Shown here piece by piece: positions 8,137 to 57,588 of a stretch of 64,000 nt of DNA. The stretch spans positions 1 to 64,000 of the forward strand of contig JBFMGU010000018.1 of assembly GCA_040752415.1 (NCBI GenBank), read 5' to 3'. Source of the DNA: Myxococcota bacterium (GTDB lineage Bacteria > Myxococcota > JACRCW01). Below the pieces are notes generated by a model that had not been told where the DNA came from, ran no database searches, and saw nothing but the letters and a program-made list of their open reading frames with translations. Numbering within the stretch: the first letter of the stretch is position 1; each line of letters begins with the position of its first letter. The translations under genes were made by a program, and so were the position numbers.

Positions 8137-8697
8137 TCAGGGAGCCCGCGACGTGAGGACGGCCATGGCGCCGCGGATCCGGTCCACCGCGCCGGGTGCG
8201 TCGGGCCGCTCGCGCAGTCGGATGACGCCGGTTTCATCCACCAGCAGCGTCTCGAATCCCTGGACCTCCGCCGGGAGGAAGACGGTGGTGCCGCTGACGT
8301 CGACCACGAGGTTCTCCTCCAGCTTCCATTCACGGGCCCATTCCAGGGAGACCGTGCCCAGCGCCACGTTCACCACCGGGATCTCCGGCCCCAGCGCCGG
8401 TCTCACCACGTCACGCCACGCCGCGAACGCACCCCCGCATCCCCGACAGTCCTGTAGGAACGCGTTCACCACCGTGGGTGTCTTCCGTGGCACTTCGAGC
8501 GCGCCGCCCGGTCCGTGCAGCGTCCAGCGTCGGATGGCCAGGGGTTTCGTCTTGGGGGGTGCTTCTCGCCTATGGTCCGCCCACCGCTGTCCCAGGAACC
8601 CCACCGTCACGGCAACCAGGACCAGCAGCGCTCCGAGGACCCGTCGACGAAATTGCGCGAAGGAACGACGGAGGGGCGCCTCGGGCGTGGGTTGCAT
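8137..8697 (-). CDS. Membrane-anchored thioredoxin-like (TlpA-like) protein
   Basis: N-terminal TM helix, CxxC (CRGC) after VVNAF, TLLVDETGVIR strand; start uncertain. Confidence 0.65.
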   Translation of the reverse strand: MQPTPEAPLRRSFAQFRRRVLGALLVLVAVTVGFLGQRWADHRREAPPKTKPLAIRRWTLHGPGGALEVPRKTPTVVNAFLQDCRGCGGAFAAWRDVVRPALGPEIPVVNVALGTVSLEWAREWKLEENLVVDVSGTTVFLPAEVQGFETLLVDETGVIRLRERPDAPGAVDRIRGAMAVLTSRAP

Positions 8698-8764
8698 TCG
8701 TTCCTCAGTGCGGCTTTAGTGCGCAGACTATTCCGGAGCTCAATTCCCGGTGCAAGGGGCGTTC

Positions 8765-16433: not shown

Positions 16434-19400
16434 GTGCGCTTGAAAAGGAAATCCTGGTGGCTGGTTGGCCTGTTGTGCCTGAGCGTCACCGCCTGCAGCG
16501 GGGGCGGTGACGATGAGGAGTACGACGACGAGGAGGAGGATGGAGAGTCCTCGTCCAGCGGGGGTGGCACCAGCAGCTCCCAGGCCGGCAGCACCTCCGG
16601 GGGCGGAAACACCTCCCAGGCGGGGTCCACCTCCAACGGAGGAACCACCTCCTACGTGTCCTCCACCTCGTACTCGGGCGGCTCCTCGTCGTGGGGCGGC
16701 TCCACCTCGTACAACAACAACACCTCCTTTGGCGGCTCCACGTCGTCGGGTGGCGCCAGCGGCAATCCACTGGTGGAGCCGTGCGGTGAGCTGCCCGAGC
16801 TGCCGTACGTGTGCCCCGGCGGCACCGCGCCCGCGTGTGAATGCGTGGACCACCAGGACGGCACCTTCCAATGGCACTGCAGCGACTGCCCTTCGCTCGA
16901 CTGCAACGCCACGCCCACCGACCCCGCGTGCGCCAAGGACGTGGCCTGCATCCGCTGTCACGGTCTGCAGACCGCCAACGGGGGACAAGGCATCGAGAAC
17001 CCGCACCCGTGGCGCTACGTGGCGTGCGTGGACTGCCACGGTGGCGTCGGGCGTGACCCGGCCAATCCCGACCGCATCCTCTCCAAGTCGGAAGCGCACG
17101 TGCCAATGCCCGCGGAGATGACCCAGAGCGGCACCAGCAACACGCCCAAGCGCACCAGCTACGAGAACCACTACCTGGGCCGCGGTGGCGTCGAGAACCT
17201 GAACGGTGGCCTGCAGTGGCTGCGCTTCACCAACCCCGGCGACCTGCGCGTGGTCGACCAGACGTGCTCCACCGCGGCGTGCCATCCCGGCATCGACACC
17301 AAGGTGAAGAACTCCACCATGGCCACGCTCGTCGGGAAGTTCGACGCCATGCTCTACCAGATTGGTCTTCCCCGTCCCGCCGACCTGGCGCCCGCGCTGG
17401 GCTATGACTCCTACGGCAAGCGCCTGGCGGTGTGGGGTGCCGCGCACCGCGACGACTCGAACTGGAACCGCAACACCTCGCCGCCCGGCTCCGTGCCGCA
17501 CATCCACGCGCTGGAGTCCTTTGACCGCGAGATCAACCCTGTCTTCAGCGAGCAGGACATTGCCAAGGAGACCATGAACAAGCTGTGTGGCAGCTGCCAC
17601 CTGGGGAACAACGGCTGGAACCACAAGGCCGGCAAGTTCCGCTCCTCTGGATGCACCGCGTGCCACATGCCTTATGACTGGACCGGGCGCAGCCAGAGCA
17701 ATGACCCGCTCATCAACAAGGAAGAGCCCACCTACCCGGCCGCGTACGAGCACATCAGCTGGCCGGAGCGGCCGCATCCTCGTCGCCACCAGATCACGCG
17801 CAACATGAAGGCGGGCGACTGCCTCTCCTGCCACACCGGCTCCGCGCGCCTGGTGTTCCAGTACATGGGCATCCGCGTCGACGACAACAAGGACCTCACC
17901 AAGGCGCGCGACCGCGGCGTGGACATCAACTTCCAGTACTCGCAGCTGGTCAACAATGACCTCAACCCCGACGCGCGGCTGCACGGCTTCGACCAGGAGA
18001 AGCTGATTGAGTACGAGGACCTCAACGAGGACGGCCAGGACGACACCCCGCCCGACGTGCACTACCTGGCGGGCATGGAGTGCGTGGACTGCCACAGCTC
18101 CGCGGACATGCACGGCGACGGAAGGATCTACAGTCGCCAGGACCAGGCAGTGAAGGTCCGCTGCGTGCACTGCCACGGCAACCTGGAATTCCCCGCGGAT
18201 CCCGACGCGGCCAACAACGCCGTCAACGAGCTGTACCTGTCCACCGGACGCATCCAGCGCAAGAACCTCTTCAAGTTCGAGACGGTGCCCGGCTACGGCG
18301 AGGAGGGCTATCCGCAGGTCACCACGCCGGGCATCTGGCTGCGCACCAAGACCACGCGGGAGTGGAAGTGGGTGCCGCAGATTGCGTGGGGCGTGAAGTG
18401 GGATCCCAACGGGCAGGACTGCTTCGGGGAAGGTCTGCGCACCGACCCGCGCAACGGGCAGTTTGTCTGCAACCCGCTCTCGTCCATTGCGCATGGCCGC
18501 TGGAACGGGTTGAGCGCCAATGGCGGTGACCTGGAGGACGGCGTGGGACCGCGACCGGGCGTGGAAGTGGTGCAGGGCGGCGGCGGCACGCAGAACGTGC
18601 AGTTCGGGTTTAGCCACGTGGGCGAAGCGGCCTATGAGCCCAACGAAGTGCCCGCGGGCGGACTGGAGTGCGCGGCGTGCCACTCCACCTGGCACAACAT
18701 GCGCTACGGCAACCACCTGGGCATCAAGGACATCCAGGACGGGAACCGGCTCTATGACTGGGACCGCGTCACCGGTGAGGTCACGCTGGGGACGCAGGGC
18801 TGGTTCAACTTCACCTACGTCAGCATGCTGGACCAGCAGCTCATCATTGATTCCAAGGGCAAGATTGCCTGGGGCATCCCGGCGCGGCTCAAGTTGTTCA
18901 TGCGCCACAGGGTGCTGGGAGCTGGTGGCGCCGAGGTTGAGTACATGCAGGACGCCCTGGGCACGAACTTCCCGTGGAAGACCTACCGGGACCGCGTGGG
19001 CATGGGAAACATCATCCACGAGTCGCAAGGTGGAATCGTCAACGCACCGGGATTCGCGCAGACCTGCGTGGAGCCCAACGGCTTCTGCGACCAGGACGAC
19101 CGCAAGAACATCAACGGCGGCCTCGGCGTCGACACCAACCAGCCACACTCCACCTCACCCATTGGCGGCGGGTGGCGCACCAAGGATTGTCGGGATTGCC
19201 ACCTCGACAACGCCGGCGGCGGTCTGACCCAGGTCAGCGCCCTCTACGGCTGGAATCCCAACGGCCGCACGCCGCAGACCAGTGCGTACCTCAACAAGAT
19301 CACGCAGGTGGAGGCCGCGCACGGCACGTATTCCACCGCCAACGGATTCGTCATCGCCGACGACGGTATCCAGCACCGGCTGGATCACATGGTGGACGAG

Positions 19401-19571
19401 GAGACGGGTTATCCGCTGGTGAACACCATGCACGTGCGCATTGACGACGGTCGGGATGGCCGGCCCCGGCGTGGCTACGACACCTGGGACCAGGACGCCG
19501 CCGGGCCCATCACGCAGTACCTGATTGACCGGCTCAAGAACATCCGCGTGAACAACATCTACGGAAACTAA
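16434..19571 (+). CDS. Large multiheme c-type cytochrome lipoprotein (9 CxxCH + 1 CX4CH)
   Basis: GGAGGAGG RBS; lipobox SVTAC; CIRCH, CVDCH, CSTAACH, CGSCH, CTACH, CLSCH, CVDCH, CVHCH, CAACH, CRDCH. Confidence 0.9.
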   Translation: MRLKRKSWWLVGLLCLSVTACSGGGDDEEYDDEEEDGESSSSGGGTSSSQAGSTSGGGNTSQAGSTSNGGTTSYVSSTSYSGGSSSWGGSTSYNNNTSFGGSTSSGGASGNPLVEPCGELPELPYVCPGGTAPACECVDHQDGTFQWHCSDCPSLDCNATPTDPACAKDVACIRCHGLQTANGGQGIENPHPWRYVACVDCHGGVGRDPANPDRILSKSEAHVPMPAEMTQSGTSNTPKRTSYENHYLGRGGVENLNGGLQWLRFTNPGDLRVVDQTCSTAACHPGIDTKVKNSTMATLVGKFDAMLYQIGLPRPADLAPALGYDSYGKRLAVWGAAHRDDSNWNRNTSPPGSVPHIHALESFDREINPVFSEQDIAKETMNKLCGSCHLGNNGWNHKAGKFRSSGCTACHMPYDWTGRSQSNDPLINKEEPTYPAAYEHISWPERPHPRRHQITRNMKAGDCLSCHTGSARLVFQYMGIRVDDNKDLTKARDRGVDINFQYSQLVNNDLNPDARLHGFDQEKLIEYEDLNEDGQDDTPPDVHYLAGMECVDCHSSADMHGDGRIYSRQDQAVKVRCVHCHGNLEFPADPDAANNAVNELYLSTGRIQRKNLFKFETVPGYGEEGYPQVTTPGIWLRTKTTREWKWVPQIAWGVKWDPNGQDCFGEGLRTDPRNGQFVCNPLSSIAHGRWNGLSANGGDLEDGVGPRPGVEVVQGGGGTQNVQFGFSHVGEAAYEPNEVPAGGLECAACHSTWHNMRYGNHLGIKDIQDGNRLYDWDRVTGEVTLGTQGWFNFTYVSMLDQQLIIDSKGKIAWGIPARLKLFMRHRVLGAGGAEVEYMQDALGTNFPWKTYRDRVGMGNIIHESQGGIVNAPGFAQTCVEPNGFCDQDDRKNINGGLGVDTNQPHSTSPIGGGWRTKDCRDCHLDNAGGGLTQVSALYGWNPNGRTPQTSAYLNKITQVEAAHGTYSTANGFVIADDGIQHRLDHMVDEETGYPLVNTMHVRIDDGRDGRPRRGYDTWDQDAAGPITQYLIDRLKNIRVNNIYGN

Positions 19572-44097: not shown

Positions 44098-44706
44098 ATG
44101 TCTTCCCTGACTTCCACGTTGAAGTGGCGTGAGACCGAGGCCCTGGCCGCGCGGCGCGACCTGTGCACCGCCTCCGACACCATCCGCGGCATGTTCATCA
44201 CCAACGCGCTGGAGTGTGTGCGGCGGGTGGTCAGCCCGGTGGCCGTCACCGAGATCGAGGCGGAGCTGGGCATCAAGGAGAAGCCGGCCATGCTGGCCAA
44301 GGTGCCCATGCGCAGCTTCATTGAAGTGCAGATGGCCGCCGCCAAGCGCATGGCCCCCGTCGTGGGAAGTCCGGAGGACGCGCTGGCCCGGATTGGTGGC
44401 GCCAGCCTGGAGATCTTCTTCGACTCCATTGCCGGCAAGACCATGAAGCTCCTGGCCGGCGACGACCCGCAGCGCCTGCTCAGCGCCGCGCCCAACGGCT
44501 ACCAGTTCGCGGTGACCTTCGGGTCGCGCAGCTACGAGAAGACCGGGCCGCGCTCCGGCGTGTTCACCCTTGAGCGTGAGCTCCTGGGGCCCTGCCACAC
44601 CCTGGGCACATTCGACGCCGCCATCTTCGGTGTGCACGGCATGCACCCGGACATGAAGGTGGAGCAGTCCGACGTGGCCACCTTCAAGATCCTCGTCAGC
44701 TGGTGA
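44098..44706 (+). CDS. DUF2378 / TIGR02265-type myxobacterial protein
   Basis: DTIRGMF, LARIG...FFDSIAGKTM, DPQRLL...PNGYQFAVTFGSR, ends VSW. Confidence 0.8.
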   Translation: MSSLTSTLKWRETEALAARRDLCTASDTIRGMFITNALECVRRVVSPVAVTEIEAELGIKEKPAMLAKVPMRSFIEVQMAAAKRMAPVVGSPEDALARIGGASLEIFFDSIAGKTMKLLAGDDPQRLLSAAPNGYQFAVTFGSRSYEKTGPRSGVFTLERELLGPCHTLGTFDAAIFGVHGMHPDMKVEQSDVATFKILVSW

Positions 44707-44714
44707 GCGGAGCC

Positions 44715-45515
44715 ATGCGGTTCCAGGGCCGGGTGGCGCTTGTCACCGGAGGGAACAGCGGAATCGGGCTCGCGTGCGCGCAGCGCCTGGCGGCGGAGGG
44801 TGCGCGCGTGGTGGTGGCCTGTCGCAACGTTGCCACCGGGGAACAGGCGGTCTCCACCATCCAAGCCGCCGGCGGCGCCGCGCGCGCGGTGCGCATGGAC
44901 GTCACCCGCCCCGACGAGGTCACCGCCGCGCTGGCCAGCGTGGTTGCCGTCGAGGGCGCGCTGCACGTGCTCATCCACTCCGCGGGCGGTGGCGGAGAGC
45001 TGCAGGCGGCCACCGAGATCGACGAGGCGCAGTGGTCCACGCTCCTGGACGTGAACCTGGGCGGCGCCTGGCGCGTGAGTCGCGCGGCGCTCCCCGTGCT
45101 GGCGCGCAGCGGCGGCGGCGCGGTGGTGCTCATCTCCTCCATTGCCGCGCTGGACACCGTGCCGCGCGCGGCGCCGTACATGGCCGGCAAGAGTGGCATG
45201 CTTGGACTGACCCGCAGCATGGCCTTGGATTACGCGGTCCACGGCGTGCGCGTGAACTGCGTCTGTCCCGCGTTCGTGGAGACGCCGTTGCTCAGCCGCG
45301 TCATCGAGAGTCAGCCGGATGCGCGCAAGGCGCGGCTGGCCTGGACGCGGCTGCATCCGCTGGGGCGCCTGGGTCGTCCCGACGACGTGGCCGCGGCCGC
45401 CACCTTCCTGGCCGCGCCCGAGGCCGGCTGGATCACGGGCGTGGCCTTGCCGGTGGACGGCGGCTACCTGCTGGGTCGCGTGGCCGGCGCGCCGCCCGAT
45501 CTGTCAGGCTCATGA
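44715..45515 (+). CDS. SDR oxidoreductase (FabG-like) in the PKS operon
   Basis: TGGNSGIG, YMAGK, VRVNCVCP, ITG..LPVDGG; alternative GTG 44703 overlaps the previous stop. Confidence 0.9.
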   Translation: MRFQGRVALVTGGNSGIGLACAQRLAAEGARVVVACRNVATGEQAVSTIQAAGGAARAVRMDVTRPDEVTAALASVVAVEGALHVLIHSAGGGGELQAATEIDEAQWSTLLDVNLGGAWRVSRAALPVLARSGGGAVVLISSIAALDTVPRAAPYMAGKSGMLGLTRSMALDYAVHGVRVNCVCPAFVETPLLSRVIESQPDARKARLAWTRLHPLGRLGRPDDVAAAATFLAAPEAGWITGVALPVDGGYLLGRVAGAPPDLSGS

Positions 45516-45574: not shown

Positions 45575-48500
45575 ATGGGTGAGCCGATTGCGGTGGTGGG
45601 CCTGGGTTGCGTGCTTCCCGACGCGCTGAACGTCCGCGCGTTCTGGGACAACACGCTGCGTGGTCACTCCGCCATCCGCGAGCTGCGCGGCGGGGGCTGG
45701 GAATGGACGCGCTACCACGACCCCAACCCCTCCGCGCCCGACCGTGCGCACTGCATCCTGGGCGCGCGCGTCGAGGATTGGGTGTTTGACTGGCGTCGCT
45801 TCCGCATGCCGCCCGCCGAGGCGGAGAGCATCAACCCGCTGCAGTTGATGGTGTTGGATGCCGGTACGCAGGCGCTGGAGGGCGTGAAGGTCATTCCGCG
45901 CGAGCGGGCCGGATTGTTCCTGGGCGGCACCGGGCTCGGCTGGCAGCGCGACAGCGGTCTGCGCATCCGCATGCAGGACCTCGTCGACGCGCTGGAGCAG
46001 AGCGAGGCGTATGGTCGGCTGGCGCCCGCGCAGCGGCAGGCGGTGCTGGAGGGCGCGCAACGCAGCCTGGATGCGCGGCTCAAGCCGGTGAGTGAGGACA
46101 ATGTCGTCGGGGCCAGCGCTTCCGTGGCGGCCGGGCGCATTGCCATGCACTTTGACCTCAAGGGCCTGCACTATTCGGTCGACGCGGGCTTTGCCAGCTC
46201 GTTGGCCGCGCTGGAGTGCGGCGTGCGCGCGCTGCGCGACGGGACGCTGGACCTCTCCGTGGTGGGCGGCGTCAGCGAGCTGCTCTCGCCGCTGGAGCTG
46301 GTGGCGTTCTCCAAGATGGGCGGGCTGGCGCAGCAGAAGGTGGCGCCCTTTGACGCTTCCGCCGAGGGCACGCTGCTCGGGGAGGGCACGGTCATCTTCG
46401 CGCTCAAGCGCCTCTCCGACGCCGAGCGCGACGGCGACCTCATCCACGCCGTGGTGCTGGGCGTGGGCGGCTCCTCCGACGGACACGGCAAGGCCCTGGT
46501 GGCGCCCCGTGCCGAGGGGCAGGCGCTGGCCATGCGGCGCGCGTACGACGACGGCGAGGTCTCTCCGCACACCGTGGGCTTCGTGGAGTGTCACGCCACC
46601 GGCACCCAGGTGGGCGACGCCAGTGAGGTGCGCGCGTTGGCCCGCATCTACGCGGGCGGCGCGAGGAGCAGCGTGGCGCTCGGGTCGGCCAAGCCTTTCG
46701 TGGGGCACCTGCGCGCCGCGGCGGGCGCGGTGGGCATGTTGCGCGCCGTGCTGGCGTTGCAGCACCGCACCGTGCCGGCGCAGATCGCGTTCAAGACGCC
46801 CAATCCCGCGCTGGAGCTGGACAGCACGCCGTTCTACGTGCCCACCGCCAACACGGCGCTCACGTCGCTGGGTGACGCGGAGCTGCCGCGCGCGGCGGTG
46901 AGCGCATTTGGTTTTGGTGGCAACAACTTCCACGCGGTGCTGGAGGCCCATGCCGGTGCGCGCCCGCGCCCCGCGCGTCGGAAGGTGTCCACCGACGAGC
47001 CGATTGCCGTGGTGGGCATGGGCGGCATCTTCCCCGGCGCGGAAGGTGTCGACGCGTTCTGGCGCATGATCATGGACGGGCGCGACACCACGCGTGAGGT
47101 TCCCAAGGACCGCTGGGACATCGACCGGCACTGGTCCAACGACCCCACCCGCCTGGACCGCAGCTACAGCCGACTGGGTTGCTTCCTGGAGAAGCTGCCC
47201 TCGCTCGAGGAGCGCTGGCGCATCCCGCCCTCCGCGGCGGAGAGCCTGGACCCCAGCCACCTGCTGGTCTTGCGCTGCGCCGAGGAGGCGCTCAGCGACG
47301 CGCGCTACACGCCGGGACGCTGGGACAAGGACCGCGTGGCGGTGATGCTGGCCTTCCTTCCCTACCAAGGGAAGAAGTTCCTGGCCGACATCCGCGTGAA
47401 CTTCCAGGAATACGCCGCGGACCTCGCCCACGCGCTCAAGCAGGCCGGCGTCTCCGACGAGCAGGCCCACGCGGTGCTCGCCGAGACGGAGGTGCGCTTC
47501 AAGCGTGCGCTGCCGGGCATCAGCGAGGACACGCTCACCGGCTACCTCGGCAGCGTCAACGCCGCGCGGGTCACCAAGCTGCATGACTTCCACGGCCCGC
47601 ACTTCGTCGTCGACAGTGCGTGCGCCTCCACCCACGCCGCGCTGCACGCCGCCGTGTCCGCGCTGCGCCACCGCACCGCCGACGTGGTGCTCTCCGGTGG
47701 CGTGTGGTGCGACATGATGCCGGAGTTCTTCATCGCGGCGTGTCGCTTCAACGCGCTCTCCGCCACCGGCATCACCCCGTTCTGCGCGCGCGCCGACGGG
47801 TTCATCCCCGGAGAGGGCGCCGGCATCTTCGTGCTCAAGCGCCTCTCCGACGCCGAGCGTGACGGAGACAAGGTCCACGCCGTCATCCGCGCGGTGGCCG
47901 GGTCCTCAGACGGGCGTGGTCGCAGCGTGTTGGCGCCCAACCCCGCGGGCGAGGCCATGGCCATGACGCGCGCGTTGGAAGCGGCGGGCGTGGACGCCAC
48001 CAGCGTGGACTACGTGGAGTGCCACGGCACCGGGACCGCGCTGGGCGACGTGGTGGAAGTGGACGCGTTGACGCGCGCGTATGGAAAGGGGCGCCCGCGG
48101 CCGCTGCTCATCGGCTCGGTGAAGAGCAACATTGGACACCTGAACGCCGCCGCCGGTGCGCCCGCGCTCATCAAGACCGCCCTGGCGGTGCGCGACGGAG
48201 TCATTCCTCCCTCGCTGAAGGTGGAGACGCCCAACCCGCAGATTGATTTTGCCTCTGGGCCCGTCAGCGTTGTCACCACGGCGCGACAGTGGGTCATGGC
48301 GCCGGGGCAGCCGCGTCGCGCTGGCATCAGCGGATTTGGCGTGGGCGGCACCAACATGCACCTGGTGGTGGAGCAGTACCTGCCGCAGGGGGCGCAGAAG
48401 CCACGGGCGGAGTCGGCGGTCGTCGTCACGGAGGCAGCCGGGCCGCAGATTGCCGTGGTGGCGGGTGCGGACCTGCAGGGTTGCGTGGAGGCGTTGGGCG

Positions 48501-51500
48501 CGCTGGCCACGGAGCAGCGTGATGCGGCACCGGGCGCGTTTGCCATGGCGCTGCAGCGCACCCACACCACGCCGCCGCGCGGGCCCGACCGGGTGCGCGT
48601 GGCCATCGTGGCCAGCACGCCCGTCGAGCTTTTCAAGCGTCACACGCTGCTGCAGTCCGCGGTGCGCAACGGGCATGACCTGGCGTTGCTGCGCCAGCAG
48701 GGCATCTGCGTGGGGATGCTGGACCCGTCCCTGAAGGTGACGGTGGCCTTCCCCGGCCAGGGTCCCCAGTACGTGAACATGCTGCGCGAGGCGGCGGCGC
48801 GTTTCCCCACGCTGCGCGAGGTGCTGCAGCGCGTGGACGTGGCCTACCAGCGGCTGGCGGGTCGCACGCTGACCAGCGCGTTCATCGTCGAGGACGCCAG
48901 CAATTGGCAGCAGCGTGACGAGGACATCCACTGCGCCGTGTTTGCCGTGAACTGCGCGCTGTACGAGCTGTTGCGCGCGCACGGGCTCAAGGCGGACAGC
49001 GTGCTGGGCCAGAGCGCCGGCGAGCTCTCCGCGCTGGTGGCGGCGGGCGTGCTCTCGCTGGAGGACGGACTGGGTGCGGTGCGGGAGCGCACCCTCAGCG
49101 TGCTTGCGCTGCAGACCGCTGACCCGGGGCAAATGGTGGCGCTGGCCTGCTCGGCGCAGACCGCGGCGCGACTGATGGAGGGACTGCCCGGCTACGCGGC
49201 GCTGGCGGCGGACAACGCGCCCAACGCGTGCATCGTCTCCGGCGCGCGCGCGGCCATGACGGCGTTGGTGGAGCGCTGTCAGCAGCAGGGCGTGGAGGCC
49301 ACCGTGCTGGCGGTGAGCCACGCGTACCACTCGCAGATGATTGCCGGCGCGCGGGACCGCTACCTGCGCCTGCTGCGCACGCTGACCTTCCGGGAGCCGC
49401 AGTGCGAGATCTTCTCGACGATCACCGGGGGCTCCCTGGCGGGCATGCGCGCGGCGGATTGGCCCGAGCACCTGGCCAGCCAGTTCGTGCTGCCGGTGGC
49501 GCTGCGTCAGGCGGTGGAGGCGGCGTACGCGTCGGGGACGCGCATGTTCGTGGAGTGTGGACCCAAGTGGCCGCTGACCACGTTCATTGGCGAGATCCTG
49601 GAGGGACGTCCCCACGCCGCGCTGGCCACCATCCATCCCAAGGTGGGGGAGGTGGAGCTGCTGCAGCGTGCGCTGGCGTTCCTGCACGTGCACGGCGTGG
49701 CCTCGCTGGCGCCTGCGGCCCCCACGGTGCTCACCGCTCCTCCCGCCCCGACGAGCTCCTTGCCGCCCATGCCCGCCACCGGCCCCACCATCAGCGTGCC
49801 CCCGCCCGGCGACGTGGTGGCGCTGTTGCGCTCCATGCGCACGCTGATTGACGGGTTCCTCCAGCCGCTGGAGTCCGCCGCGCCGGGACGTGCGCCCAGT
49901 GGCGTGGAGGCGGTGCAGGCCGTGCAGGCCATGCGCGAGGCGGTGCAGGTGTTGGAGCGCGTATCCACCCCGCCGCTTGGCGTCAGTCGGCCGCCCGCGC
50001 CGGCCTCGCAGCGACCCGCTCCGTCGAGCCCGCCCGCCGCGCCCGCCCCGGTGACGACGGGAACACCCGCTCCCGGACCCGACCACGCGGCCACGGTGCT
50101 GGCGCGCCTCAAGGCCAACGTCATCCGCAAGACGGGCTATCCCGCGGAGATGCTCGAGGACAATCTCGACCTCGAGGCGGACCTGGGCATCGACACCGTC
50201 AAGCAGGTGGCCATCCTGGGCGAGACGCGCGCCCAGCTGGGCGTGGCCGCGGATCCCAACTTCAAGCTGCGCGACCACAACACGCTGCGCAAGATGGCGC
50301 AGTATCTCGTCGGCAGACTGGGTGGTGCCGTCGCGGTTGCGCCCGCGCCCGCACCCGTGGCTCCGGCTCCCGTCGTGGCGCCGTCGCCGGCGCAGGGCGG
50401 GGAGCGTGAGGTGGTGCGCGCGCAGGTGTTGGCCCACGTCATGCGCAAGACGGGCTACCCGGCGGAGATGCTGGAGGAGAATCTCGACCTCGAGGCGGAC
50501 CTGGGCATCGACACCGTCAAGCAGGTGGCCATCCTGGGCGAGGTGCGCGTCCAGCTTGGCCTGCCGCAGGACCCCACCTTCAAGCTGCGCGACCACAACA
50601 CGCTGGCCAAGGTGGTGGACCACTTCACGCGTCGCCTGCAGGCGCAGTCGCGCCCCGTCCCGCCGCCAGCCATCACCACCCCCGCGCGGGGCACGCCCGC
50701 TCCCGCCGCCGCGCGCCAGGTGCGCCAGGAAGCGCTGGACCAGGTGCTGGGCACGTTGAAGGCCAACGTGATGCGCAAGACCGGCTACCCGCCGGAGATG
50801 CTGGAGCTGGACCTCGATCTCGAGGCGGACCTGGGCATCGACACCGTCAAGCAGGTGGCCATCCTCGGCGAGACGCGCGCCCAGCTCGGGCTTGCCACGG
50901 ACCCCAACTTCAAGCTGCGCGAGACCAACACGCTGCGCAAGATGGGCCAGTATCTCGTCGGGAGACTGGCGGGCGCGGCGCCGCGTGATCGCACACCCGC
51001 GCGCACCGAGATTCCGGTGGTCCCCGCTCCCGCGCCGGCTCCTTCCGCGCCCGTGGTGTCGTCGGAAGAGACCTGGAACCAGGTGCACCAGCTGGTCATC
51101 CAGCAGCTCATTCGCAAGACGGGCTACCCCGCGGAGATGCTCGAGCTGGACCTCGACCTCGAGGCGGACCTGGGCATCGACACCGTCAAGCAGGTGGCGA
51201 TCTTTGGCGAGGTGCGCGCGCAGCTGAAGCTGGCCCAGGATCCCAACTTCCGCCTGCGCGACCACACCACGCTGCGCAAGATCATCAGCCACTTCGCCTC
51301 GCGCCTGCAGCCCGCCACCCCCCCGCCCACAACGACGGCGCCCAGCGCACCTCCTCCCGTGGCAGCGACTCCGGCGGCACCCGAGTTCCAGCGCGTGGGC
51401 GAGCCCGTGCACGTGACCTCCCGCGCGCCAGGCACCGCGTTCATCTGCGGCGGCGCCGAGCTGCGGGTGGTCACCATGGCGCGCTGCGCGCAGATCATGA

Positions 51501-52282
51501 TGGACGCCGTGGTGAAGGGCTCCGGCGGCGTCCCCGTGGCGTTGCTGGGTTTGCGCTCCGGCGCGCCCGCGCTCGTCGAGGATACCGGGGCGTTGCTGCT
51601 GGAGGTGCAGGCGCGCGCGGAGAGCGGCCAGGTGGAGACGCGCCTGGTCTCCGCCTCCGGCGCGGTGCACTTCGTGGGTCGGGTGGAGCTGGCCGCGGAA
51701 CGTCCGCAGGCTGCGTTGAACCTGGCTTCTCCCGCCGTGCGCGTCGGCGTGGACCCGCGCAACCGCGCGCGCAATGGCGTGGCGCTGTTGCAGGCGGTGG
51801 GGCGGGTGGATCCGGGCTCTCGCACGCCGCCAGTGGTGGACTGGGCGCAGCAGCTCCGCTTTGACCTGCTGGCCGGTGGCATGACCGTGCCGGAGTCCGC
51901 GGGCAATCCCGCCGCGTGCATCGCCGCCGCGCTCGACGGTGCCGGAGCGATCGCCTCGTTCGGCTGGTACGCGCTCACCGGGGCGTTCCACGTGCCCTGC
52001 GCGCTGGAGAGCCTGCGCTTCCACGCCCTCCCAAGCCCGGGGGCGGAGCTGCGTTTCCACGTGCAACTGGCGCCGTTCGCCCAGGGAGCGTGGCACGCGC
52101 ATGCGCTGATTCTCGACGGAGAAGGCCGGGTGCTGGGGGAGCTGCAGGGCTTGACCGGTGTGCGCGTGGGACCCACTGCGGGGGCGGTGTGGCAGGGGTT
52201 GGACGTCGACGGAACGGCCGTGGCGTGGCAACGCTTCACGCAACAGCTTTCCGGACCCGTGATCGATGGTGAGGACCATTGA
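45575..52282 (+). CDS. Iterative type I PKS / PfaA-related subunit A: KS(Cys->Phe)-KS-AT-ACPx4(Thr)-degenerate DH
   Basis: KS1 DAGFASS/ECHATGT/GHL; KS2 DSACAST/ECHGTGT/GHL; AT FPGQG, GQSAG, HAYH; four LEADLGIDTVKQ; C-terminal hot-dog-like region lacking the HxxxGxxxxP motif. Confidence 0.92.
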   Translation: MGEPIAVVGLGCVLPDALNVRAFWDNTLRGHSAIRELRGGGWEWTRYHDPNPSAPDRAHCILGARVEDWVFDWRRFRMPPAEAESINPLQLMVLDAGTQALEGVKVIPRERAGLFLGGTGLGWQRDSGLRIRMQDLVDALEQSEAYGRLAPAQRQAVLEGAQRSLDARLKPVSEDNVVGASASVAAGRIAMHFDLKGLHYSVDAGFASSLAALECGVRALRDGTLDLSVVGGVSELLSPLELVAFSKMGGLAQQKVAPFDASAEGTLLGEGTVIFALKRLSDAERDGDLIHAVVLGVGGSSDGHGKALVAPRAEGQALAMRRAYDDGEVSPHTVGFVECHATGTQVGDASEVRALARIYAGGARSSVALGSAKPFVGHLRAAAGAVGMLRAVLALQHRTVPAQIAFKTPNPALELDSTPFYVPTANTALTSLGDAELPRAAVSAFGFGGNNFHAVLEAHAGARPRPARRKVSTDEPIAVVGMGGIFPGAEGVDAFWRMIMDGRDTTREVPKDRWDIDRHWSNDPTRLDRSYSRLGCFLEKLPSLEERWRIPPSAAESLDPSHLLVLRCAEEALSDARYTPGRWDKDRVAVMLAFLPYQGKKFLADIRVNFQEYAADLAHALKQAGVSDEQAHAVLAETEVRFKRALPGISEDTLTGYLGSVNAARVTKLHDFHGPHFVVDSACASTHAALHAAVSALRHRTADVVLSGGVWCDMMPEFFIAACRFNALSATGITPFCARADGFIPGEGAGIFVLKRLSDAERDGDKVHAVIRAVAGSSDGRGRSVLAPNPAGEAMAMTRALEAAGVDATSVDYVECHGTGTALGDVVEVDALTRAYGKGRPRPLLIGSVKSNIGHLNAAAGAPALIKTALAVRDGVIPPSLKVETPNPQIDFASGPVSVVTTARQWVMAPGQPRRAGISGFGVGGTNMHLVVEQYLPQGAQKPRAESAVVVTEAAGPQIAVVAGADLQGCVEALGALATEQRDAAPGAFAMALQRTHTTPPRGPDRVRVAIVASTPVELFKRHTLLQSAVRNGHDLALLRQQGICVGMLDPSLKVTVAFPGQGPQYVNMLREAAARFPTLREVLQRVDVAYQRLAGRTLTSAFIVEDASNWQQRDEDIHCAVFAVNCALYELLRAHGLKADSVLGQSAGELSALVAAGVLSLEDGLGAVRERTLSVLALQTADPGQMVALACSAQTAARLMEGLPGYAALAADNAPNACIVSGARAAMTALVERCQQQGVEATVLAVSHAYHSQMIAGARDRYLRLLRTLTFREPQCEIFSTITGGSLAGMRAADWPEHLASQFVLPVALRQAVEAAYASGTRMFVECGPKWPLTTFIGEILEGRPHAALATIHPKVGEVELLQRALAFLHVHGVASLAPAAPTVLTAPPAPTSSLPPMPATGPTISVPPPGDVVALLRSMRTLIDGFLQPLESAAPGRAPSGVEAVQAVQAMREAVQVLERVSTPPLGVSRPPAPASQRPAPSSPPAAPAPVTTGTPAPGPDHAATVLARLKANVIRKTGYPAEMLEDNLDLEADLGIDTVKQVAILGETRAQLGVAADPNFKLRDHNTLRKMAQYLVGRLGGAVAVAPAPAPVAPAPVVAPSPAQGGEREVVRAQVLAHVMRKTGYPAEMLEENLDLEADLGIDTVKQVAILGEVRVQLGLPQDPTFKLRDHNTLAKVVDHFTRRLQAQSRPVPPPAITTPARGTPAPAAARQVRQEALDQVLGTLKANVMRKTGYPPEMLELDLDLEADLGIDTVKQVAILGETRAQLGLATDPNFKLRETNTLRKMGQYLVGRLAGAAPRDRTPARTEIPVVPAPAPAPSAPVVSSEETWNQVHQLVIQQLIRKTGYPAEMLELDLDLEADLGIDTVKQVAIFGEVRAQLKLAQDPNFRLRDHTTLRKIISHFASRLQPATPPPTTTAPSAPPPVAATPAAPEFQRVGEPVHVTSRAPGTAFICGGAELRVVTMARCAQIMMDAVVKGSGGVPVALLGLRSGAPALVEDTGALLLEVQARAESGQVETRLVSASGAVHFVGRVELAAERPQAALNLASPAVRVGVDPRNRARNGVALLQAVGRVDPGSRTPPVVDWAQQLRFDLLAGGMTVPESAGNPAACIAAALDGAGAIASFGWYALTGAFHVPCALESLRFHALPSPGAELRFHVQLAPFAQGAWHAHALILDGEGRVLGELQGLTGVRVGPTAGAVWQGLDVDGTAVAWQRFTQQLSGPVIDGEDH
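50090..51310 (+). repeat. Four tandem ACP-coding repeats separated by Pro/Ala linkers
   Basis: CTCGAGGCGGACCTGGGCATCGACACCGTCAAGCAGGTGGC recurs four times at about 320-340 nt spacing. Confidence 0.92.
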
Positions 52283-55200
52283 TGAGCAAAGGCGGTGAGG
52301 CCCAACAACTCGCGGTGGTGGGCATGGCCTGCCGCCTTCCGGGCGCACCCAACCTGGAGGCGTTCTGGCGCCTGCTCGTCGAGGGCACGGTGGCGCTGGA
52401 GCCGCTGCAGCCCGACCGCTGGGATCCCGCCACCTACGCGGATGAGCTGCCCGACGGACGCGCGCAGAGCTTCCTGGGTGGCGTGTTGAAGGACTTCCGC
52501 GTCGACTTCGCCGCGCTGCACCTCCCGCCGCTGCAGACCGAGCGCCTGCACCGCATGGAGAAGGTGGCGGTGGCGACCATGACGGAGGCGCTGCGCGACG
52601 CCCAGGCACGCGGGGCCGCGTGGGAGGGGAAACGCGGGCAGATCTTCGTGGCGGCCAGCACGCTGGCTCCCGACACGCTCACCGATCACGGTCGCCGCAT
52701 CCGACGCTACGAGCTGGCCGCGCCCATCCGCGAAGCGTTGGACGCCGTGGTGCCGCAGCAGGCCAACGACGCCGACGAGATTGTCCAGCAGCTCTTCAAC
52801 GTGGCCGCGCCGCCGGTGGACCCGGACTCCCTGCAGAGCACCGCCAGCCTCATCGGCGGTCGCGTGGCGCACCTGTTCAACTTCGACGGTGGCCACCTCG
52901 CCGTCGACGGAGGCATGTCCTCCAGCCTGGCCGCGCTGCACCGTGCCGCGGTGGCGCTGCAGACGGGTGCGTGTGATCTCGCGCTGGTGTGCGGCCTGTC
53001 TCCGCTCCTCACCGCGTCGTCGGTGCTGGCGTTCGCGCACCACGGCCTGCTCACCACCGACCGGCCCCGTCCCTTCCAGCCCGACGCCAATGGCACCACG
53101 CTGGGAGAGGGCGCGGGCGCGCTGGTGTTGATGCGCCGTGACGAGGTGCCCGCGGAGCGGACCTACGCGGTTCTCGAGGGACTGGGCAGCGGACACGCCA
53201 GCAGCGCCAGCGCGCTCAAGGACATCACCGCGCAGGCGGCCACGGCGGCGTTGGCGCAGGCAGGCTGTGGTCCCGACGAGGTGGCGGTGGTGGAGTCCCG
53301 CGCGTGCGGCGTGGCCGGCGAGGATTCCGCGGAGTCCGAGGGGCTGGCCATTGCGTACGGCAGTGCCAGCCGCGCCGCGCCCCTGCTCGTCACCTCGACG
53401 GTAGGCCAGCTGGGCTTCCTGCAGGCCGCGGGCGGGACCGTGGCGCTGCTCAAGGCGTGCCTGGCCATTTCCCGTGGGAGCTGGCCGGCCTCTGCCGTGG
53501 CGGGCGCACCCCGTCGCGTGGGCGTCAGCGACGCGGGATTGGGGCCGTTGGCCTACCACGCCATCCTCGCGCATCCGTCGGTGGAGACGGTGGCGACGGA
53601 GAAGCGCGTGGTGCGTCGTCGTCCGGAGCCGGACGCGGTTGCGGTGGTGGGCGCGGGACTCCTGGTGCCGCAGGCCAATGACGTGGAGACGTTCTGGCGC
53701 AACGTGCTCAACAAGGTGGACGCCATCTCCGACCTGCCGGCGGACCGCTTCGACGTCGACCGGCTGGTGGGCGCCAGCCCGGACGCGGGCGCGGTGCTCA
53801 AAACGCGGCTCGCCGGTGTCGTCGACATTCCCGCGTACGACCCGCTGCGCTTTGGTCTCCCGCCCCACACCGCCGCGGCCATGGACCCCGCGGTGGCGCT
53901 CTCCCTGCTCAGCGCGGAGCAGGCGCTGGCCCAGGCGCAGTACGGACCGGGAAAGTGGGATCCCCGACGGGTGCAGGTGGTGATGGGGCAGCTGCCCATG
54001 CGCGCCAAGGAAATGCAGATGGAGGCGCGGCTGCTCTTTGCCGGGCACCTGGTGCTCTCCGCGGAGGCGCTGCGGGAGGCGGGCCTGGCCGATGGCGACG
54101 TGCAACGCGTCATCCAGCTGGCGCGCGAGCTCTACAACCGCCGCGTCCCGCCCATCTCCCCGGAAATGCTCGAGGCGCGCACCGGCCTCACCTGCGCCCA
54201 GCGCGTGGCCAATGCGTGGGGCTTCCACGGCGGCGCGCTTTCCGTCGACGCGGCCTGCGCCTCGTCGTTGGCGGCGGTGCGCATCGGGGTGGAGTCGCTG
54301 CGACTGGGCGAGGCCGACGTCGTGGTGGCGGGCGGTGTGGCCTACAACCTGCTGCCGGAATACTACATCAGCCTCAGCATGCTCGGCGTGCTCTCGCCGC
54401 GCGGGGCGCCCCCGTTTGACGTCGGTGCGGATGGGTTCGTGCCCGCGGAGGGCGGTGGCGCGGTGGTGCTGCGTCGCCTCAAGGATGCGCAGCAGGCCGG
54501 CGAGAAGGTGCTGGCGGTCATCCGTGGCGTGGGCAGCGCGGGCGACGGGCGCAGTCCCTCCATCTACGCACCCAGCGGCGAGGGCTACCGTCGCGCCATC
54601 CAGCGCGCGTTGCAGTCCGCGGGCGTCGGCGCGTCGGACATTGACTACGTGGAGGCACACGGCGGCGGAACGCGACGTGGCGACCAGGCGGAGACCGAGG
54701 CCTACGCCGCCATCTACGGCCAGCGCGACGCCGGGGCTCCCATGGTGGTGGGCACGGTGAAGTCGCAGATTGGCCACCAGAGCTCCGCGGCGGGAATCGT
54801 GGGGCTCATCAAGACGGCGCTGGCGCTCGAGCGTCGCGTCATCCCGCCCAGCAACTGCGACGCGCCTCCCCACGCCGAGCTGCCCTTCGGCCGCGTGCCG
54901 CTGGACCTGGCCGCCGAGCCGCGCCCCTGGACCACCTCCGGTCGACGTCGACGCGCCGGCGTGAGCGCATTTGGCCTGGGCGGCGTGAACTACCACGTCA
55001 TCCTCGAGGAGCCGGAGCGCAACCCGCGAGATGAGGTGACACCCGAGCAGCAACCGCCCGCGCACCTGCCCAGCCGTGGCGCCCGCGCGGACCGCTTCCT
55101 CGTCGAGCTGGTGCCGGTGGCACTGCCGGAGCGCCCGCCGCGGCTGAACCTGTTGGGCCGTCACGTCGTCGTGGTGGCGGACGCGGGAAAGCTCTGGCCC

Positions 55201-57588
55201 GCGTTCCAGGCGCGCCTGACCCAGCGCGGCGCCGTTGTCTCCATCCTGCCCGCCGGTACTCCCGACCTGGAGGCGGCCATCCGTGATGCGCGCGCCGCCC
55301 ACGGCGTGGTGCACGGCGTGTTGGACCTCAGCACCTTTGCTCCGCCGTCGGAGTCCCCGCCCACCTCGGACGCGCTGGCCCGGCAGGTGCTGGAGGTGCA
55401 GGCGCGCGCTTTCACCGTGTTGCGCGCGGTCTACCCGGACCTGGCCGACGCCGCGCCCCAGACCGCGTTCTACGGCGCGGTGACGTCGATGGGTGGCGAC
55501 CTGGGCCTCATGGTTCGCACTGGTGGCAACGTGCTGGGCGCCACGATGTTGGGGTGGGCCAAGGGCCTCAAGCAGGAGCTGCCCGGCGTGGTGGCCAAGG
55601 GCCTGGACTTTGACCCGCACCAACGTGCCGACGAGGTGGCGACCCAGGCGTTGCGCGAGATCGAGGATGCCAACCCGCGCATGGAGGTGGGCTTTGCCGG
55701 GCGCCGCTTTGGCGTGAACCTCCGACGGGCGAGCTTCCCCGAGGAGGCGCCCGCGGTCAGCGGCATCACGCGTGGCGACGTGTACGTGTTCTCCGGTGGC
55801 GGCCGCGGCGTGGTGTTCGAGTGCGCGTGCGCGCTGGCGCGCCAGGGGGCCATTGCCGTCGTCACCGGCCGCACCGCGCCGCCGCGCGGCGACGAGTCCT
55901 GGCTGCACCTCGACGAGGCCGCGTTTGCCGCGTACCGCACCGAGGAGATGGCGCGACGTCGCCGCGCGGATCCCACGCTCACCCCCGCGCGCTTTGCCCA
56001 GGAGTTCGACAACCTGGTGCGCCAACGCGAGCTGTTCCGCAACCTGCAGCGCGCCCGGGCCCAGGAGCTCCCGCTGCACTACGAGGTCTGCGACGTCACC
56101 GACCGCGCGCAGGTGGACGCGCTGGTGGCGCGCGTGGTGGCCAGCCACGGGCGCGTCGACGGGCTCATCCACGGCGCCATGGTGGAGTGGTCGCGCAGCC
56201 TGCCGTCCAAGTCGCCGCAGATCGTCGAGCGCACCATGGCCGCCAAGGTGGTGGGGCTCATCCAACTCGTCGAGGCGCTGCGGGAGGAGAAGCTCGGCAC
56301 CATCCTGTGCTTCGGGTCGGGCGCGGGGCGGTTCGGCAACCGCGGCCAGTCCGACTACTGCGCGGCCAATGCGCAGATGGCGGCGCTGCTACCCGTGCTG
56401 GCGGCGCGTCATCCCGCACGACCGCGCGCCATGACGGTGGATTGGACCGCGTGGCAGGAGGTGGGCGCCGCGGTGCAGAACCCCGACGTGGCGCGGCTGG
56501 TGGAAGCCACCGGCGTGACCGCCATCCGCCCGCAGGAGGGGACCTACTGGTTCCTGCGTGAGCTCACCGCGGCCGACGAGGGCGAGTCCGTCATCTTCGA
56601 GGAGCGCATGCTCCATGACTGGCCCACGCTGGGCAGCGGCGGCGAGGGCAGCGGGGAGGACGCCGTGCTCCTCGACGACCGCGGCATGCCATTGGTGCCC
56701 GGTGAGTGGCCGCTGGTCGACCGCGTGCTGCAGCGCGAGGAGGGCCGGGTCCGCTTTGCGCGTCGTCTCGAGGTGGACAAGGACGCGTTCCTGGATCAGC
56801 ACCGCCTGTACCGCGTGCCCATCGTCCCGGCCACGTTCGGCTGCGAGATCCTCGCCGAGGCCGCCGCGCTGTGCTCCCCGGGCTGGGATGTGGCCGAGGC
56901 GCACGACGTGGTCATTGACGTGCCCATGAAGCTGTTCCGCGAGCAGCCGCTGCTCATCCGCGCCTCCGCCACCGTGGTGGAGGAGAGTGGCGACGTGCGC
57001 GTGGTGCAGGCGGAGACGCATTCCCACCTGTTCCTCAAGGGGCGGCCGTTGGAGGAGCGCACGCATCACCGCGGTCGCTTCCTGCTGCGGAGACAGCGCC
57101 AGCCCGCGTCCAAGGTGGCCTTCCCAGACGTGCCCGGCGTGGTGCGCTCACGCTCGTTCTTCCACCTGGCCAAGGATCCCGTGACGCTGGGGCCGCTGTT
57201 CTGTCGCGCGGAGTGGATCCGCGTCACCGTGGATTCCGTGGTGGGAACCGTGCGTGCACCCCGCCAGCGCGACATCCTGGCCCGCACCGCCTATCCCGTG
57301 TTCCAGGTGGACCCGCTCCTGATGGACGCCGCGTTCCAGGTTGCCGCCAACTGGGACGGACACCACCACGGCAACGTCTCCATCCCCGTCGGCGTGGGCA
57401 AGCTGCTCTTCGGTCGCACGCGGGGGCGCGGAGAAGCGGCGCGTGTGCTGGCCACGGTGCGCCAGGTGGCCAATCCCGACGTGGTCTACGACATCATGGT
57501 GGCCGGCGAGAACGACGACCTCCTGATGCAGATTGGCGGCCTGCGCCTGCGTCGCGTCAGCCCCGCCGACGATCCCTCCGAGGCATGA
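52282..57588 (+). CDS. Type I PKS subunit B: degenerate KS-KS-KR-DH
   Basis: KS3 DGGMSSS/ESRACG/GFL; KS4 DAACASS/EAHGGGT/GHQ; KR SGGGRGV...GRFGNRGQSDYCAAN; DH FLDQHRLYRVPIVP and DPLLMDAAFQ; TGATG coupling. Confidence 0.92.
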   Translation: MSKGGEAQQLAVVGMACRLPGAPNLEAFWRLLVEGTVALEPLQPDRWDPATYADELPDGRAQSFLGGVLKDFRVDFAALHLPPLQTERLHRMEKVAVATMTEALRDAQARGAAWEGKRGQIFVAASTLAPDTLTDHGRRIRRYELAAPIREALDAVVPQQANDADEIVQQLFNVAAPPVDPDSLQSTASLIGGRVAHLFNFDGGHLAVDGGMSSSLAALHRAAVALQTGACDLALVCGLSPLLTASSVLAFAHHGLLTTDRPRPFQPDANGTTLGEGAGALVLMRRDEVPAERTYAVLEGLGSGHASSASALKDITAQAATAALAQAGCGPDEVAVVESRACGVAGEDSAESEGLAIAYGSASRAAPLLVTSTVGQLGFLQAAGGTVALLKACLAISRGSWPASAVAGAPRRVGVSDAGLGPLAYHAILAHPSVETVATEKRVVRRRPEPDAVAVVGAGLLVPQANDVETFWRNVLNKVDAISDLPADRFDVDRLVGASPDAGAVLKTRLAGVVDIPAYDPLRFGLPPHTAAAMDPAVALSLLSAEQALAQAQYGPGKWDPRRVQVVMGQLPMRAKEMQMEARLLFAGHLVLSAEALREAGLADGDVQRVIQLARELYNRRVPPISPEMLEARTGLTCAQRVANAWGFHGGALSVDAACASSLAAVRIGVESLRLGEADVVVAGGVAYNLLPEYYISLSMLGVLSPRGAPPFDVGADGFVPAEGGGAVVLRRLKDAQQAGEKVLAVIRGVGSAGDGRSPSIYAPSGEGYRRAIQRALQSAGVGASDIDYVEAHGGGTRRGDQAETEAYAAIYGQRDAGAPMVVGTVKSQIGHQSSAAGIVGLIKTALALERRVIPPSNCDAPPHAELPFGRVPLDLAAEPRPWTTSGRRRRAGVSAFGLGGVNYHVILEEPERNPRDEVTPEQQPPAHLPSRGARADRFLVELVPVALPERPPRLNLLGRHVVVVADAGKLWPAFQARLTQRGAVVSILPAGTPDLEAAIRDARAAHGVVHGVLDLSTFAPPSESPPTSDALARQVLEVQARAFTVLRAVYPDLADAAPQTAFYGAVTSMGGDLGLMVRTGGNVLGATMLGWAKGLKQELPGVVAKGLDFDPHQRADEVATQALREIEDANPRMEVGFAGRRFGVNLRRASFPEEAPAVSGITRGDVYVFSGGGRGVVFECACALARQGAIAVVTGRTAPPRGDESWLHLDEAAFAAYRTEEMARRRRADPTLTPARFAQEFDNLVRQRELFRNLQRARAQELPLHYEVCDVTDRAQVDALVARVVASHGRVDGLIHGAMVEWSRSLPSKSPQIVERTMAAKVVGLIQLVEALREEKLGTILCFGSGAGRFGNRGQSDYCAANAQMAALLPVLAARHPARPRAMTVDWTAWQEVGAAVQNPDVARLVEATGVTAIRPQEGTYWFLRELTAADEGESVIFEERMLHDWPTLGSGGEGSGEDAVLLDDRGMPLVPGEWPLVDRVLQREEGRVRFARRLEVDKDAFLDQHRLYRVPIVPATFGCEILAEAAALCSPGWDVAEAHDVVIDVPMKLFREQPLLIRASATVVEESGDVRVVQAETHSHLFLKGRPLEERTHHRGRFLLRRQRQPASKVAFPDVPGVVRSRSFFHLAKDPVTLGPLFCRAEWIRVTVDSVVGTVRAPRQRDILARTAYPVFQVDPLLMDAAFQVAANWDGHHHGNVSIPVGVGKLLFGRTRGRGEAARVLATVRQVANPDVVYDIMVAGENDDLLMQIGGLRLRRVSPADDPSEA

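Follow-up and report, generated by a model that had tools for sequence, protein, structure and literature searches.

The locus described here raises the question of why a synthase should carry, directly in front of each of its intact ketosynthase (KS) domains, a second KS domain that has lost the active-site cysteine. It lies in a 64,000-nucleotide stretch of DNA (the window), which corresponds to contig C90 of an 11.0 Mb Myxococcota draft genome in 520 contigs. Three overlapping genes of the forward strand form a compact operon and encode two large proteins, chain A and chain B, and a phosphopantetheinyl transferase (PPTase). The search with Pfam domain models assigned the order KS-KS-acyltransferase (AT)-acyl carrier protein (ACP) to chain A and KS-KS-ketoreductase (KR)-dehydratase (DH) to chain B. 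The first KS of each chain is degenerate (KS0), and chain A ends in a DH-like domain that is degenerate as well (DH0; Table 1). A sequence-only reading of this DNA had described a synthase made of pseudo/active pairs, with KS0-KS present twice and DH0 beside DH, and this description is upheld by the results below. We consider it probable that the operon encodes a compact iterative type I polyketide or lipid synthase in which each KS0 is paired with a KS. It would belong to a lineage that also comprises the synthases of Myxococcaceae called here dawenol-type, which resemble polyunsaturated fatty acid (PUFA) synthases, and a conjugated polyene, or else a polyenoic acyl chain, is its most likely product.

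Active-site residues of the four ketosynthase domains

The four KS domains of the window display 30-40% pairwise identity. Their alignment, together with a look-up of each codon, verified every KS residue and coordinate named in the sequence-only reading. KS1 contains the motif DAGF and keeps both histidines (H340, CAC at 46592; H378, CAC at 46706), KS2 and KS4 are intact, the histidines of KS4 being included in the motifs EAHGGG (H794) and GHQ (H833), and KS3 has lost all three residues (motifs DGGM, ESRACG with R341, and GFL with F380). KS1 keeps the whole His-Lys-His set and the motif GFGG, whereas KS3 has lost all of them.

The conservation of these states was counted in two families. That of chain A has 93 rows, of which 88 are database proteins (the chain A of the window among them) and five were read from genomes; that of chain B has 32 rows, and here the row of genome G165 was re-sliced before counting. 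At the cysteine site of KS1, the family has Phe in 47 rows, Tyr in 33, His in 6, Gly in 2, Ala in 1 and a gap in 4, and Cys in none of the 93. Both histidines are retained at KS1 in 80 rows; among the 13 rows with a non-His site, seven have lost one (to D, A or S), two only the second, and four have alignment gaps. The triad of KS2 is Cys-His-His in 93/93 rows and that of KS4 in 32/32 rows. In KS3, by comparison, Cys is found in 0/32 rows, Arg occupies the first His site in 28/32 and His is present at the second site in 3/32. Since the same substitutions recur across the family, the dead sites are not a product of chance, and the Phe of KS1 is genuine rather than a sequencing error, as no member of the family has Cys at this site. 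KS1 and KS2 display 59% and 64% identity, respectively, to their nearest orthologues, with end branches of 0.28 and 0.26.

The reads proposed as a check at positions 46190-46192 gave no difference to TTT, although the control is weak: it consists of one contig of 217 bases (46153-46369) at a depth of 2.6, from the sole public DNA run found (share 0.07), which may be the source sample. The same look-up listed no RNA run containing the stretch. Over most of the stretch, the same run contained only short fragments from KS genes of other organisms.

Origin of the KS0-KS pairs

Phylogenetic trees of KS domains were obtained from 74 rows and then from 72 rows. Matches below 45 bits or covering less than 200 profile positions were dropped, as were the third KSs of the proteins P0200 and P0208; the later trees were also computed without the very long rows ownPfa3_C135 CLF (chain-length factor) and ownFab_C475. 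In the 72-row tree, the 23 KS0 rows form one clade (UFBoot 100, SH-aLRT 98) that spans the chain-A type, the chain-B type and the many-protein clusters of genome G173 and of Stigmatella. Their 23 active partners are included in a clade of 27 rows (99/97) that also holds four modular KS rows. The two clades contain mirrored sub-clades, composed of nine KS0 and nine active rows for the chain-A type and of five and five for the chain-B type. This mirroring indicates that KS0 and KS were duplicated together, the didomain having arisen once and having been copied as a whole afterwards.

The sequence-only reading had noted that this order is the reverse of the KS-CLF order of PfaC. The Pfa3-type proteins of the same genome, in which the Cys-less domain follows the active KS, agree with this statement. 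The KS0 clade is separate from the KS and CLF rows of these proteins, and KS0 is not the PfaC chain-length factor. The deeper branching of the trees is unstable.

Two further arrangements were seen among relatives. The protein P0182 of Hyalangium minutum (2257 aa) has four KS domains in a row. The third reads CHKY, with the Cys kept but Tyr in place of the second His, as does the first KS of a 1287-aa protein of G173 (L101:4266-8126). The proteins P0030, P0035 and P0048 (about 2850-2960 aa) form a separate tandem-KS family of opposite order, with the active domain first and the degenerate one second (HSAH, DDAH). Both KSs of P0030 are intact and its ACPs are of the Thr type described below, while the ACPs of P0048 are of the Ser type.

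Carrier domains with threonine and the neighbouring transferase gene

Each of the four tandem ACPs of chain A has a threonine at the phosphopantetheine site. This residue aligns with the serine of the DS motif in the ACPs of PigH and PksA (HMMER), and chain A has no Ser-type LGIDSI repeat (Thr in 4/4). The four copies are diverged, with 51-66 of 90 residues identical, and TRF detected no DNA tandem repeat of ACP length; they do not represent a collapsed repeat. Threonine is widespread in the relatives. It is present in every tandem-KS relative of the series P0123-P0191 with a recognizable ACP motif and in most of the KS-AT-ACPn-KR-DH relatives of about 3000 aa, while P0194 and P0199 both combine a Thr-type ACP with a Ser-type one. 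The 120 relatives of the ACP protein of G173 (L102:1-2694) contain 407 Thr motifs versus 23 Ser motifs, 114 proteins being Thr-only and six Ser-only. P0243 of Stigmatella aurantiaca Sg a15 has five Thr-type ACPs (DLGIDTVKQVE). The two canonical Pfa2 proteins of the window's genome have Ser-type ACPs (DLGIDSIKRVEIL).

The PPTase gene overlaps the end of the chain B gene. In all five other two-chain loci, a PPTase orthologue (39.6-50% identity) immediately follows chain B, which gives 6/6 loci with the window included, and a 44% match is present in the G173 cluster. The enzyme has no real similarity to the five other PPTases of the genome (E-values above 0.1 to four of them and of 1e-4 to an AcpS-like one), two of which adjoin canonical pfa clusters. 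The PPTases next to chain B represent a conserved private lineage.

Canonical PPTases are not known to load an ACP in which the serine is changed to threonine. The Thr ACPs and the private PPTase lineage are most simply explained together if Thr is the loading site for a dedicated transferase. Searches by motif and by wording found no published description of Thr at this ACP site, although the dawenol paper may contain one.

The C-terminal domain of chain A

The last 310 residues of chain A have no match in Pfam or NCBIfam. An AlphaFold model based on a 12-row alignment (pLDDT 80.5, pTM 0.82) displays two hotdog halves, and its best Foldseek matches are polyketide synthase (PKS) dehydratases (7zmf_B, E-value 2e-11, TMq 0.65). 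Structural alignment with VIA gave a Z-score of 24.2 with the DH of MlnB (root-mean-square deviation 4.7, 247 aligned positions), 21-24 with DHs, about 21 with product-template domains and 18.8-20.8 with TesB-type thioesterases. The comparison with a profile of the chain B DH from five loci (hhalign) gave a probability of 94.3% and an E-value of 1e-7 over 222 columns. This alignment begins past the region of the catalytic His; D196 faces the Asp of the DH, whose Gln has no counterpart in the tail, and the family conserves neither of these positions. The motif HxxxGxxxxP is absent from DH0. The only invariant residues in the 12 rows are W165, G176, W206, P228 and W293, and no polar residue is invariant. 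The fold model and the motif scan agree with the earlier description of chain A as ending in a DH-like fold without the catalytic His and of chain B as having a full DH. These features make DH0 an inactive paralogue, and a remote homologue, of the DH in chain B.

A thioesterase function was also considered for DH0 and set aside: the TesB-type proteins have Z-scores below those of the DHs and no catalytic residue is conserved, which leaves this function a distant prospect.

The DH0 family comprises 79 representatives (E-value ≤ 1e-3) among 1.84 billion entries, either fused to chain A or as free proteins of about 250-400 aa. In G346, DH0 is a separate gene of 317 aa between chains A and B. In G284 (locus L100), the DH0 frame (7880-10018) differs from the chain A frame (3792-9314) and overlaps its end, which represents either a separate overlapping gene or an assembly frameshift. 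A conserved tail, W(Q/R)(R/H)F...GED(H/V)xW, closes DH0 in many relatives (about 52240-52279 in the window) and could be a docking motif towards chain B.

Comparison with known systems

The closest known system is that of Stigmatella aurantiaca Sg a15, represented by the PKS proteins P0195 (AIS92915.1 / A0A097DC56) and P0243 (A0A097DC57), which we take to be the dawenol polyene synthase of Osswald et al. (2014, J Biotechnol 191:54). A "highly unusual PKS" of this strain is reported to make the polyene dawenol. P0195 has the domains KS0-KS-AT with the residues YHKH and CHKH, so that a Cys-less KS is fused ahead of an active KS as in the window, and its KS0 and KS belong to the same two clades; the Sg a15 proteins display only about 40% identity with those of the window. 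The attribution to dawenol has indirect support, as Corallococcus sp. bb12-1, which is reported to have a dawenol-like cluster, has a homologue of P0243 (P0249). Dawenol has been termed a "PUFA-like PK" in the literature.

The G173 cluster resembles the window in its private PPTase lineage and in having KR and DH but no enoyl reductase (ER). It differs in composition. Its about ten proteins include four that each carry a KS pair, one with AAT-DH, a free AT, the PPTase and P450s, whereas in the window the domains are fused into two chains with a single AT and DH0, and AAT, free AT and P450 are absent. The ACPx4 protein of G173 adjoins a KR open reading frame (ORF), and ACPn and KR are fused in the named relatives. 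On its KS0-KS order, its two KS clades, its Thr ACPs (DLG[IV]DT[VI] in the family) and its PPTase lineage, the operon appears to belong to the tandem KS0-KS, or dawenol-type, family of PUFA-like PKSs. The supposition that the design has no precedent did not hold, as KS0-KS occurs in P0195 of Stigmatella, in four pairs in G173 and in the two-chain operon of other Myxococcota. The KS0-KS unit is thus already in the databases. Its fusion into two chains, together with DH0, makes a distinct variant that is undescribed as far as our searches reach.

The PUFA synthases PfaA and PfaC share with the window the iterative use of multiple ACPs and two active KSs, one of which is paired with a Cys-less KS-like domain. 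KS2 aligns with residues 2-451 of the PDB entry 6riw ("ORF10"; E-value 3e-83), presumably the KS-CLF didomain of Moritella PfaC. In the window, by contrast, the dead domain comes first and is present twice, the ACPs are of the Thr type, and there is no FabA-type DH (none detected by Pfam in either chain), PfaD ER or AGPAT. The genome also has two canonical PUFA synthase clusters, on contigs C509 (about 18.5-37 kb) and C135 (about 37.5-56.5 kb), with PfaD ER, Pfa2, Pfa3 KS-CLF and their own PPTase nearby. The CLF domains of these Pfa3 proteins have D or E at the Cys site, where CLFs typically carry Gln.

The type II KS-alpha/KS-beta (CLF) systems and the KSQ loading domains of modular PKSs resemble the window in that an active KS is partnered or preceded by a catalytically inactive paralogue. 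The KSQ rows P0200_KS1 and P0208_KS1 read QHKH (VDSGQSS); KS1 shares their His-Lys-His but has F206 and not Gln. The window further differs in that the domains are fused with no ACP between them, that the Cys site is occupied by F, Y or H (KS1) or by M and others (KS3), not by Gln, and that KS3 has no triad.

An enediyne PKS (PKSE) is a single chain KS-AT-ACP-KR-DH-PPTase with one KS and a Ser-type ACP. It resembles the window in its catalytic set, with which it makes a polyene without ER, and in its dedicated PPTase, and differs from the two chains, tandem KSs and separate PPTase gene found there. Thr-ACP relatives of about 3000 aa with a fused PPTase (PF01648) are represented by P0217, P0220, P0224, P0226, P0232 and P0233. 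Pfam scans of the neighbouring ORFs detected no enediyne cassette or hotdog thioesterase, dedicated models for these not being part of the search. Finally, PigJ (RedX) is a two-KS protein of prodiginine synthesis, whose NCBIfam model gives two-stretch matches to both chains (5.6e-109 and 7.3e-68), far below its cut-off; the pathway and partners of PigJ/RedX differ from those of the window.

Proposed mechanism and alternative explanations

One AT, four ACPs, one KR, one DH and two active KSs, as in PUFA synthases, suggest that the synthase works iteratively. The single AT would load malonyl onto the four tandem ACPs, which the PPTase of the operon would have activated, apparently on threonine. 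KS2 and KS4 would extend the chain at different stages, each KS0 standing in for the second subunit of a KS dimer in the manner of a chain-length factor, and the KR and DH of chain B would process every round. Since there is no ER, a conjugated polyene or polyenoic product is to be expected. KS1 may make the starter by decarboxylation of malonyl-ACP, KS3 would be structural only, and DH0 is probably a scaffold, a partner or a substrate-tunnel domain.

Several observations weigh against this proposal. The DH0 family profile did not detect DH0 in G005, and the neighbour scans of the window found no thioesterase or other release enzyme. The deep branching of the KS trees is unstable, the active clade being without modular KSs in the 74-row tree and with four of them in the 72-row trees, so that a derivation from a PfaA-type KS is not established. 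The identity of the Sg a15 proteins as the dawenol PKS is presumptive. The Cys site of KS1 is F, Y or H and not the Gln of KSQ loading domains. Finally, the product could be more saturated if an ER of the two pfa clusters or of the fatty acid synthase acts in trans.

For KS1, the role of priming decarboxylase is favoured over a purely structural one, with a confidence just short of even, because most KS1-type domains retain His-Lys-His and GFGG, residues that decayed completely in the KS3 lineage, and because KS1 is about as conserved as the active KS2. It is nevertheless quite possible, if somewhat below an even chance, that KS1 is structural only, like KS3. Synthesis would then be started by the active KSs, through their own decarboxylation of malonyl-ACP or from an acyl-CoA, and the histidines would be kept for folding or ACP docking. 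The bulky residues at the Cys site of KS1, the 13 rows with one or both His sites changed and the KS3-type partners that work without any triad would fit this alternative. A joint reading goes further than the priming role. It combines Thr-borne phosphopantetheine across the superfamily and the private PPTase into an orthogonal pair, takes KS0-KS as an independent and reversed reinvention of the chain-length-factor principle, and makes the F/Y-type KS0 of chain A a priming malonyl decarboxylase. We hold it tentatively, as clearly less probable than not.

A partly or fully reduced secondary lipid, made with an ER encoded elsewhere or with the short-chain dehydrogenase/reductase (SDR) encoded upstream acting in trans, is an unlikely product. 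The genome does have two PfaD-type ER genes, the SDR gene is translationally coupled, and PUFA synthases are known to use a separate ER protein. Nevertheless, each ER gene belongs to a complete pfa cluster of its own on another contig (the PfaD family, TIGR02814, is found only on C509 and C135), the SDR is of a generic FabG/glucose-dehydrogenase type without orthologue in the five other two-chain loci, and no ER-family match was found among the scanned ORFs of G059, G005, G346 and two G173 loci.

It is very improbable that the operon represents a PKSE or a canonical PUFA synthase split in a different way. Three relatives of chain B carry the JGI label "enediyne polyketide synthase", and the whole-protein score of chain A on the PfaA model TIGR02813, which the true Pfa2 proteins of the genome pass, is 1067.7 bits for a cut-off of 1010.1. 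This score sums two KS domains, however, and when the genome was searched, no single match of chain A exceeded 504.7 bits, which is below the cut-off. FabA-type DH, PfaD and AGPAT are missing, tandem KSs are not known from PKSE or PfaA architectures, the ACPs are of the Thr type where the Pfa2 proteins have DLGIDSIKRVEIL, and KS0 forms a clade apart from the CLF rows of Pfa3. That errors of sequencing or assembly produced the dead sites, or that the genes are decaying pseudogenes, is a negligible prospect even in a 520-contig draft where TTT is one base from TGT, as the same states are found in 93 and 32 relatives from many sources, the frames are open over 2235 and 1768 codons, the contig of the public run agrees at 46190-46192, and the four ACP copies are diverged.

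The operon reduces an unusual class of iterative synthases, on which there has been hardly any work, to a minimal form of two proteins. It would be a good model of how a dead KS partner controls an active KS and of why two KS pairs are needed. We know of no product of a two-chain operon. Its conservation extends to cultured genera, and myxobacteria may thus widely make a metabolite that awaits discovery. If the Thr ACPs are really loaded, the textbook serine rule for carrier proteins would change, and an orthogonal tagging pair would become available to synthetic biology.

Distribution of the two-chain operon

Chain A is collinear with the chain A of G005, G346, G284 and G165 (50-55% identity) and chain B with that of G005, G346, G059 and G284 (43.6-45.6% over about 1760-1790 residues); the chain B of G165 was compared by motif check only. 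Pfam gives KS-KS-AT-ACP and KS-KS-KR-DH in three of these loci. A KS3-type match (E-value ≤ 3.4e-51) is present in 27 of 400 other Myxococcota genomes, divided among the groups f15 (3 genomes), f7 (2) and f11 (22), G195 being counted in the denominator only. The open frames range from 454 to 3964 aa, and 21 of them have about 1750-2140 aa. The closer check covered G346, G005, G059 and G284; for the remaining f11 genomes, the two-chain architecture is inferred from ORF size only.

In the protein collection, full-length relatives of chain B form 26 clusters (39-59% identity), nearly all of metagenome proteins. Chain-A-type proteins are numerous and, according to their source labels, come from Archangium, Cystobacter, Vitiosangium, Anaeromyxobacter, Stigmatella, Myxococcus, Ectobacillus and Brevibacillus. 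A search of genome contigs with the whole chain B drew ordinary PKSs through the generic KS motif (≤ 38% identity) and no orthologue, and a search of metagenome contigs with KS3 alone gave 271 pattern matches and no relative.

Gene organization and neighbouring genes

The stop codon of chain A overlaps the start of chain B in the sequence TGATG, and that of chain B overlaps the start of the PPTase gene in ATGA. The chain B ORF opens at TTG 52279 (1769 codons). Its start is most likely the ATG at 52282 and not this TTG. A promoter and terminator scan gave no signal exceeding shuffled sequences, and Pfam scans of the neighbouring ORFs revealed no other PKS-related gene in the window.

Table 1. 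Features of the operon and of the two genes upstream, with positions in the window.
Feature	Position	Strand	Residues or evidence
DUF2378 / TIGR02265 gene, possible accessory	44098..44706	+	Pfam 5e-24, TIGR02265
Classical SDR (FabG / glucose-dehydrogenase-like), system membership uncertain	44703..45515	+	Pfam adh_short_C2 1.5e-60; generic SDR/FabG matches in NCBIfam
Chain A, 2235 aa, KS0-KS-AT-ACPx4-DH0	45575..52282	+	Translation, Pfam
KS1 (KS0, chain A)	45575..46981	+	F206 (TTT 46190) at Cys site; H340, K373, H378 kept
KS2 (active, chain A)	46988..48418	+	C683 (TGC 47621), H817, H855
AT, chain A	48749..49699	+	Pfam Acyl_transf_1 1.2e-31; motifs GQSAG, HAYH
Four tandem ACPs, each DLGIDTVKQV	50072..51319	+	Thr (ACC) at phosphopantetheine site
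ACP Thr codons T1541, T1647, T1757, T1870	50195, 50513, 50843, 51182	+	ACC
DH0, predicted double-hotdog pseudo-dehydratase	51350..52279	+	AF2 model, Foldseek, VIA, hhalign
Chain B, 1768 aa from ATG, KS0-KS-KR-DH	52282..57588	+	Translation, Pfam
KS3 (KS0, chain B), fully degenerate	52294..53634	+	M213 (ATG 52915), R341, F380
KS4 (active, chain B)	53623..55047	+	C660 (TGC 54256), H794, H833
KR, chain B	55408..56460	+	Pfam KR 1.9e-26; extent from TIGR02813 match; motif YCAAN
DH, chain B	56710..57567	+	Pfam PKS_DH_N and PS-DH; motifs HRLYRVPIVP, DAAFQ
PPTase, Sfp-type, 241 aa	57585..58310	+	Pfam ACPS and 4PPT_N

Upstream of chain A, the stop codon of the DUF2378 gene overlaps the start of the SDR gene, which ends 60 bases before chain A. 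The DUF2378 gene is one of only three copies in this genome. G005 also has three copies, one of them directly upstream of its chain A (37.5% identity), and in G059, G165, G284 and G346 no copy is adjacent to the cluster. No relative of DUF2378 was found in the PDB by sequence. Just upstream of these genes, the segment 40948-43757 encodes a sulfur-handling trio composed of a Pyr_redox_2 oxidoreductase, a fusion of DUF1641 with a DsrC-like domain, and a DsrE-like protein. Farther upstream, a long ORF (16434-19571) contains multihaem motifs of the cytochrome c7/c3 type.

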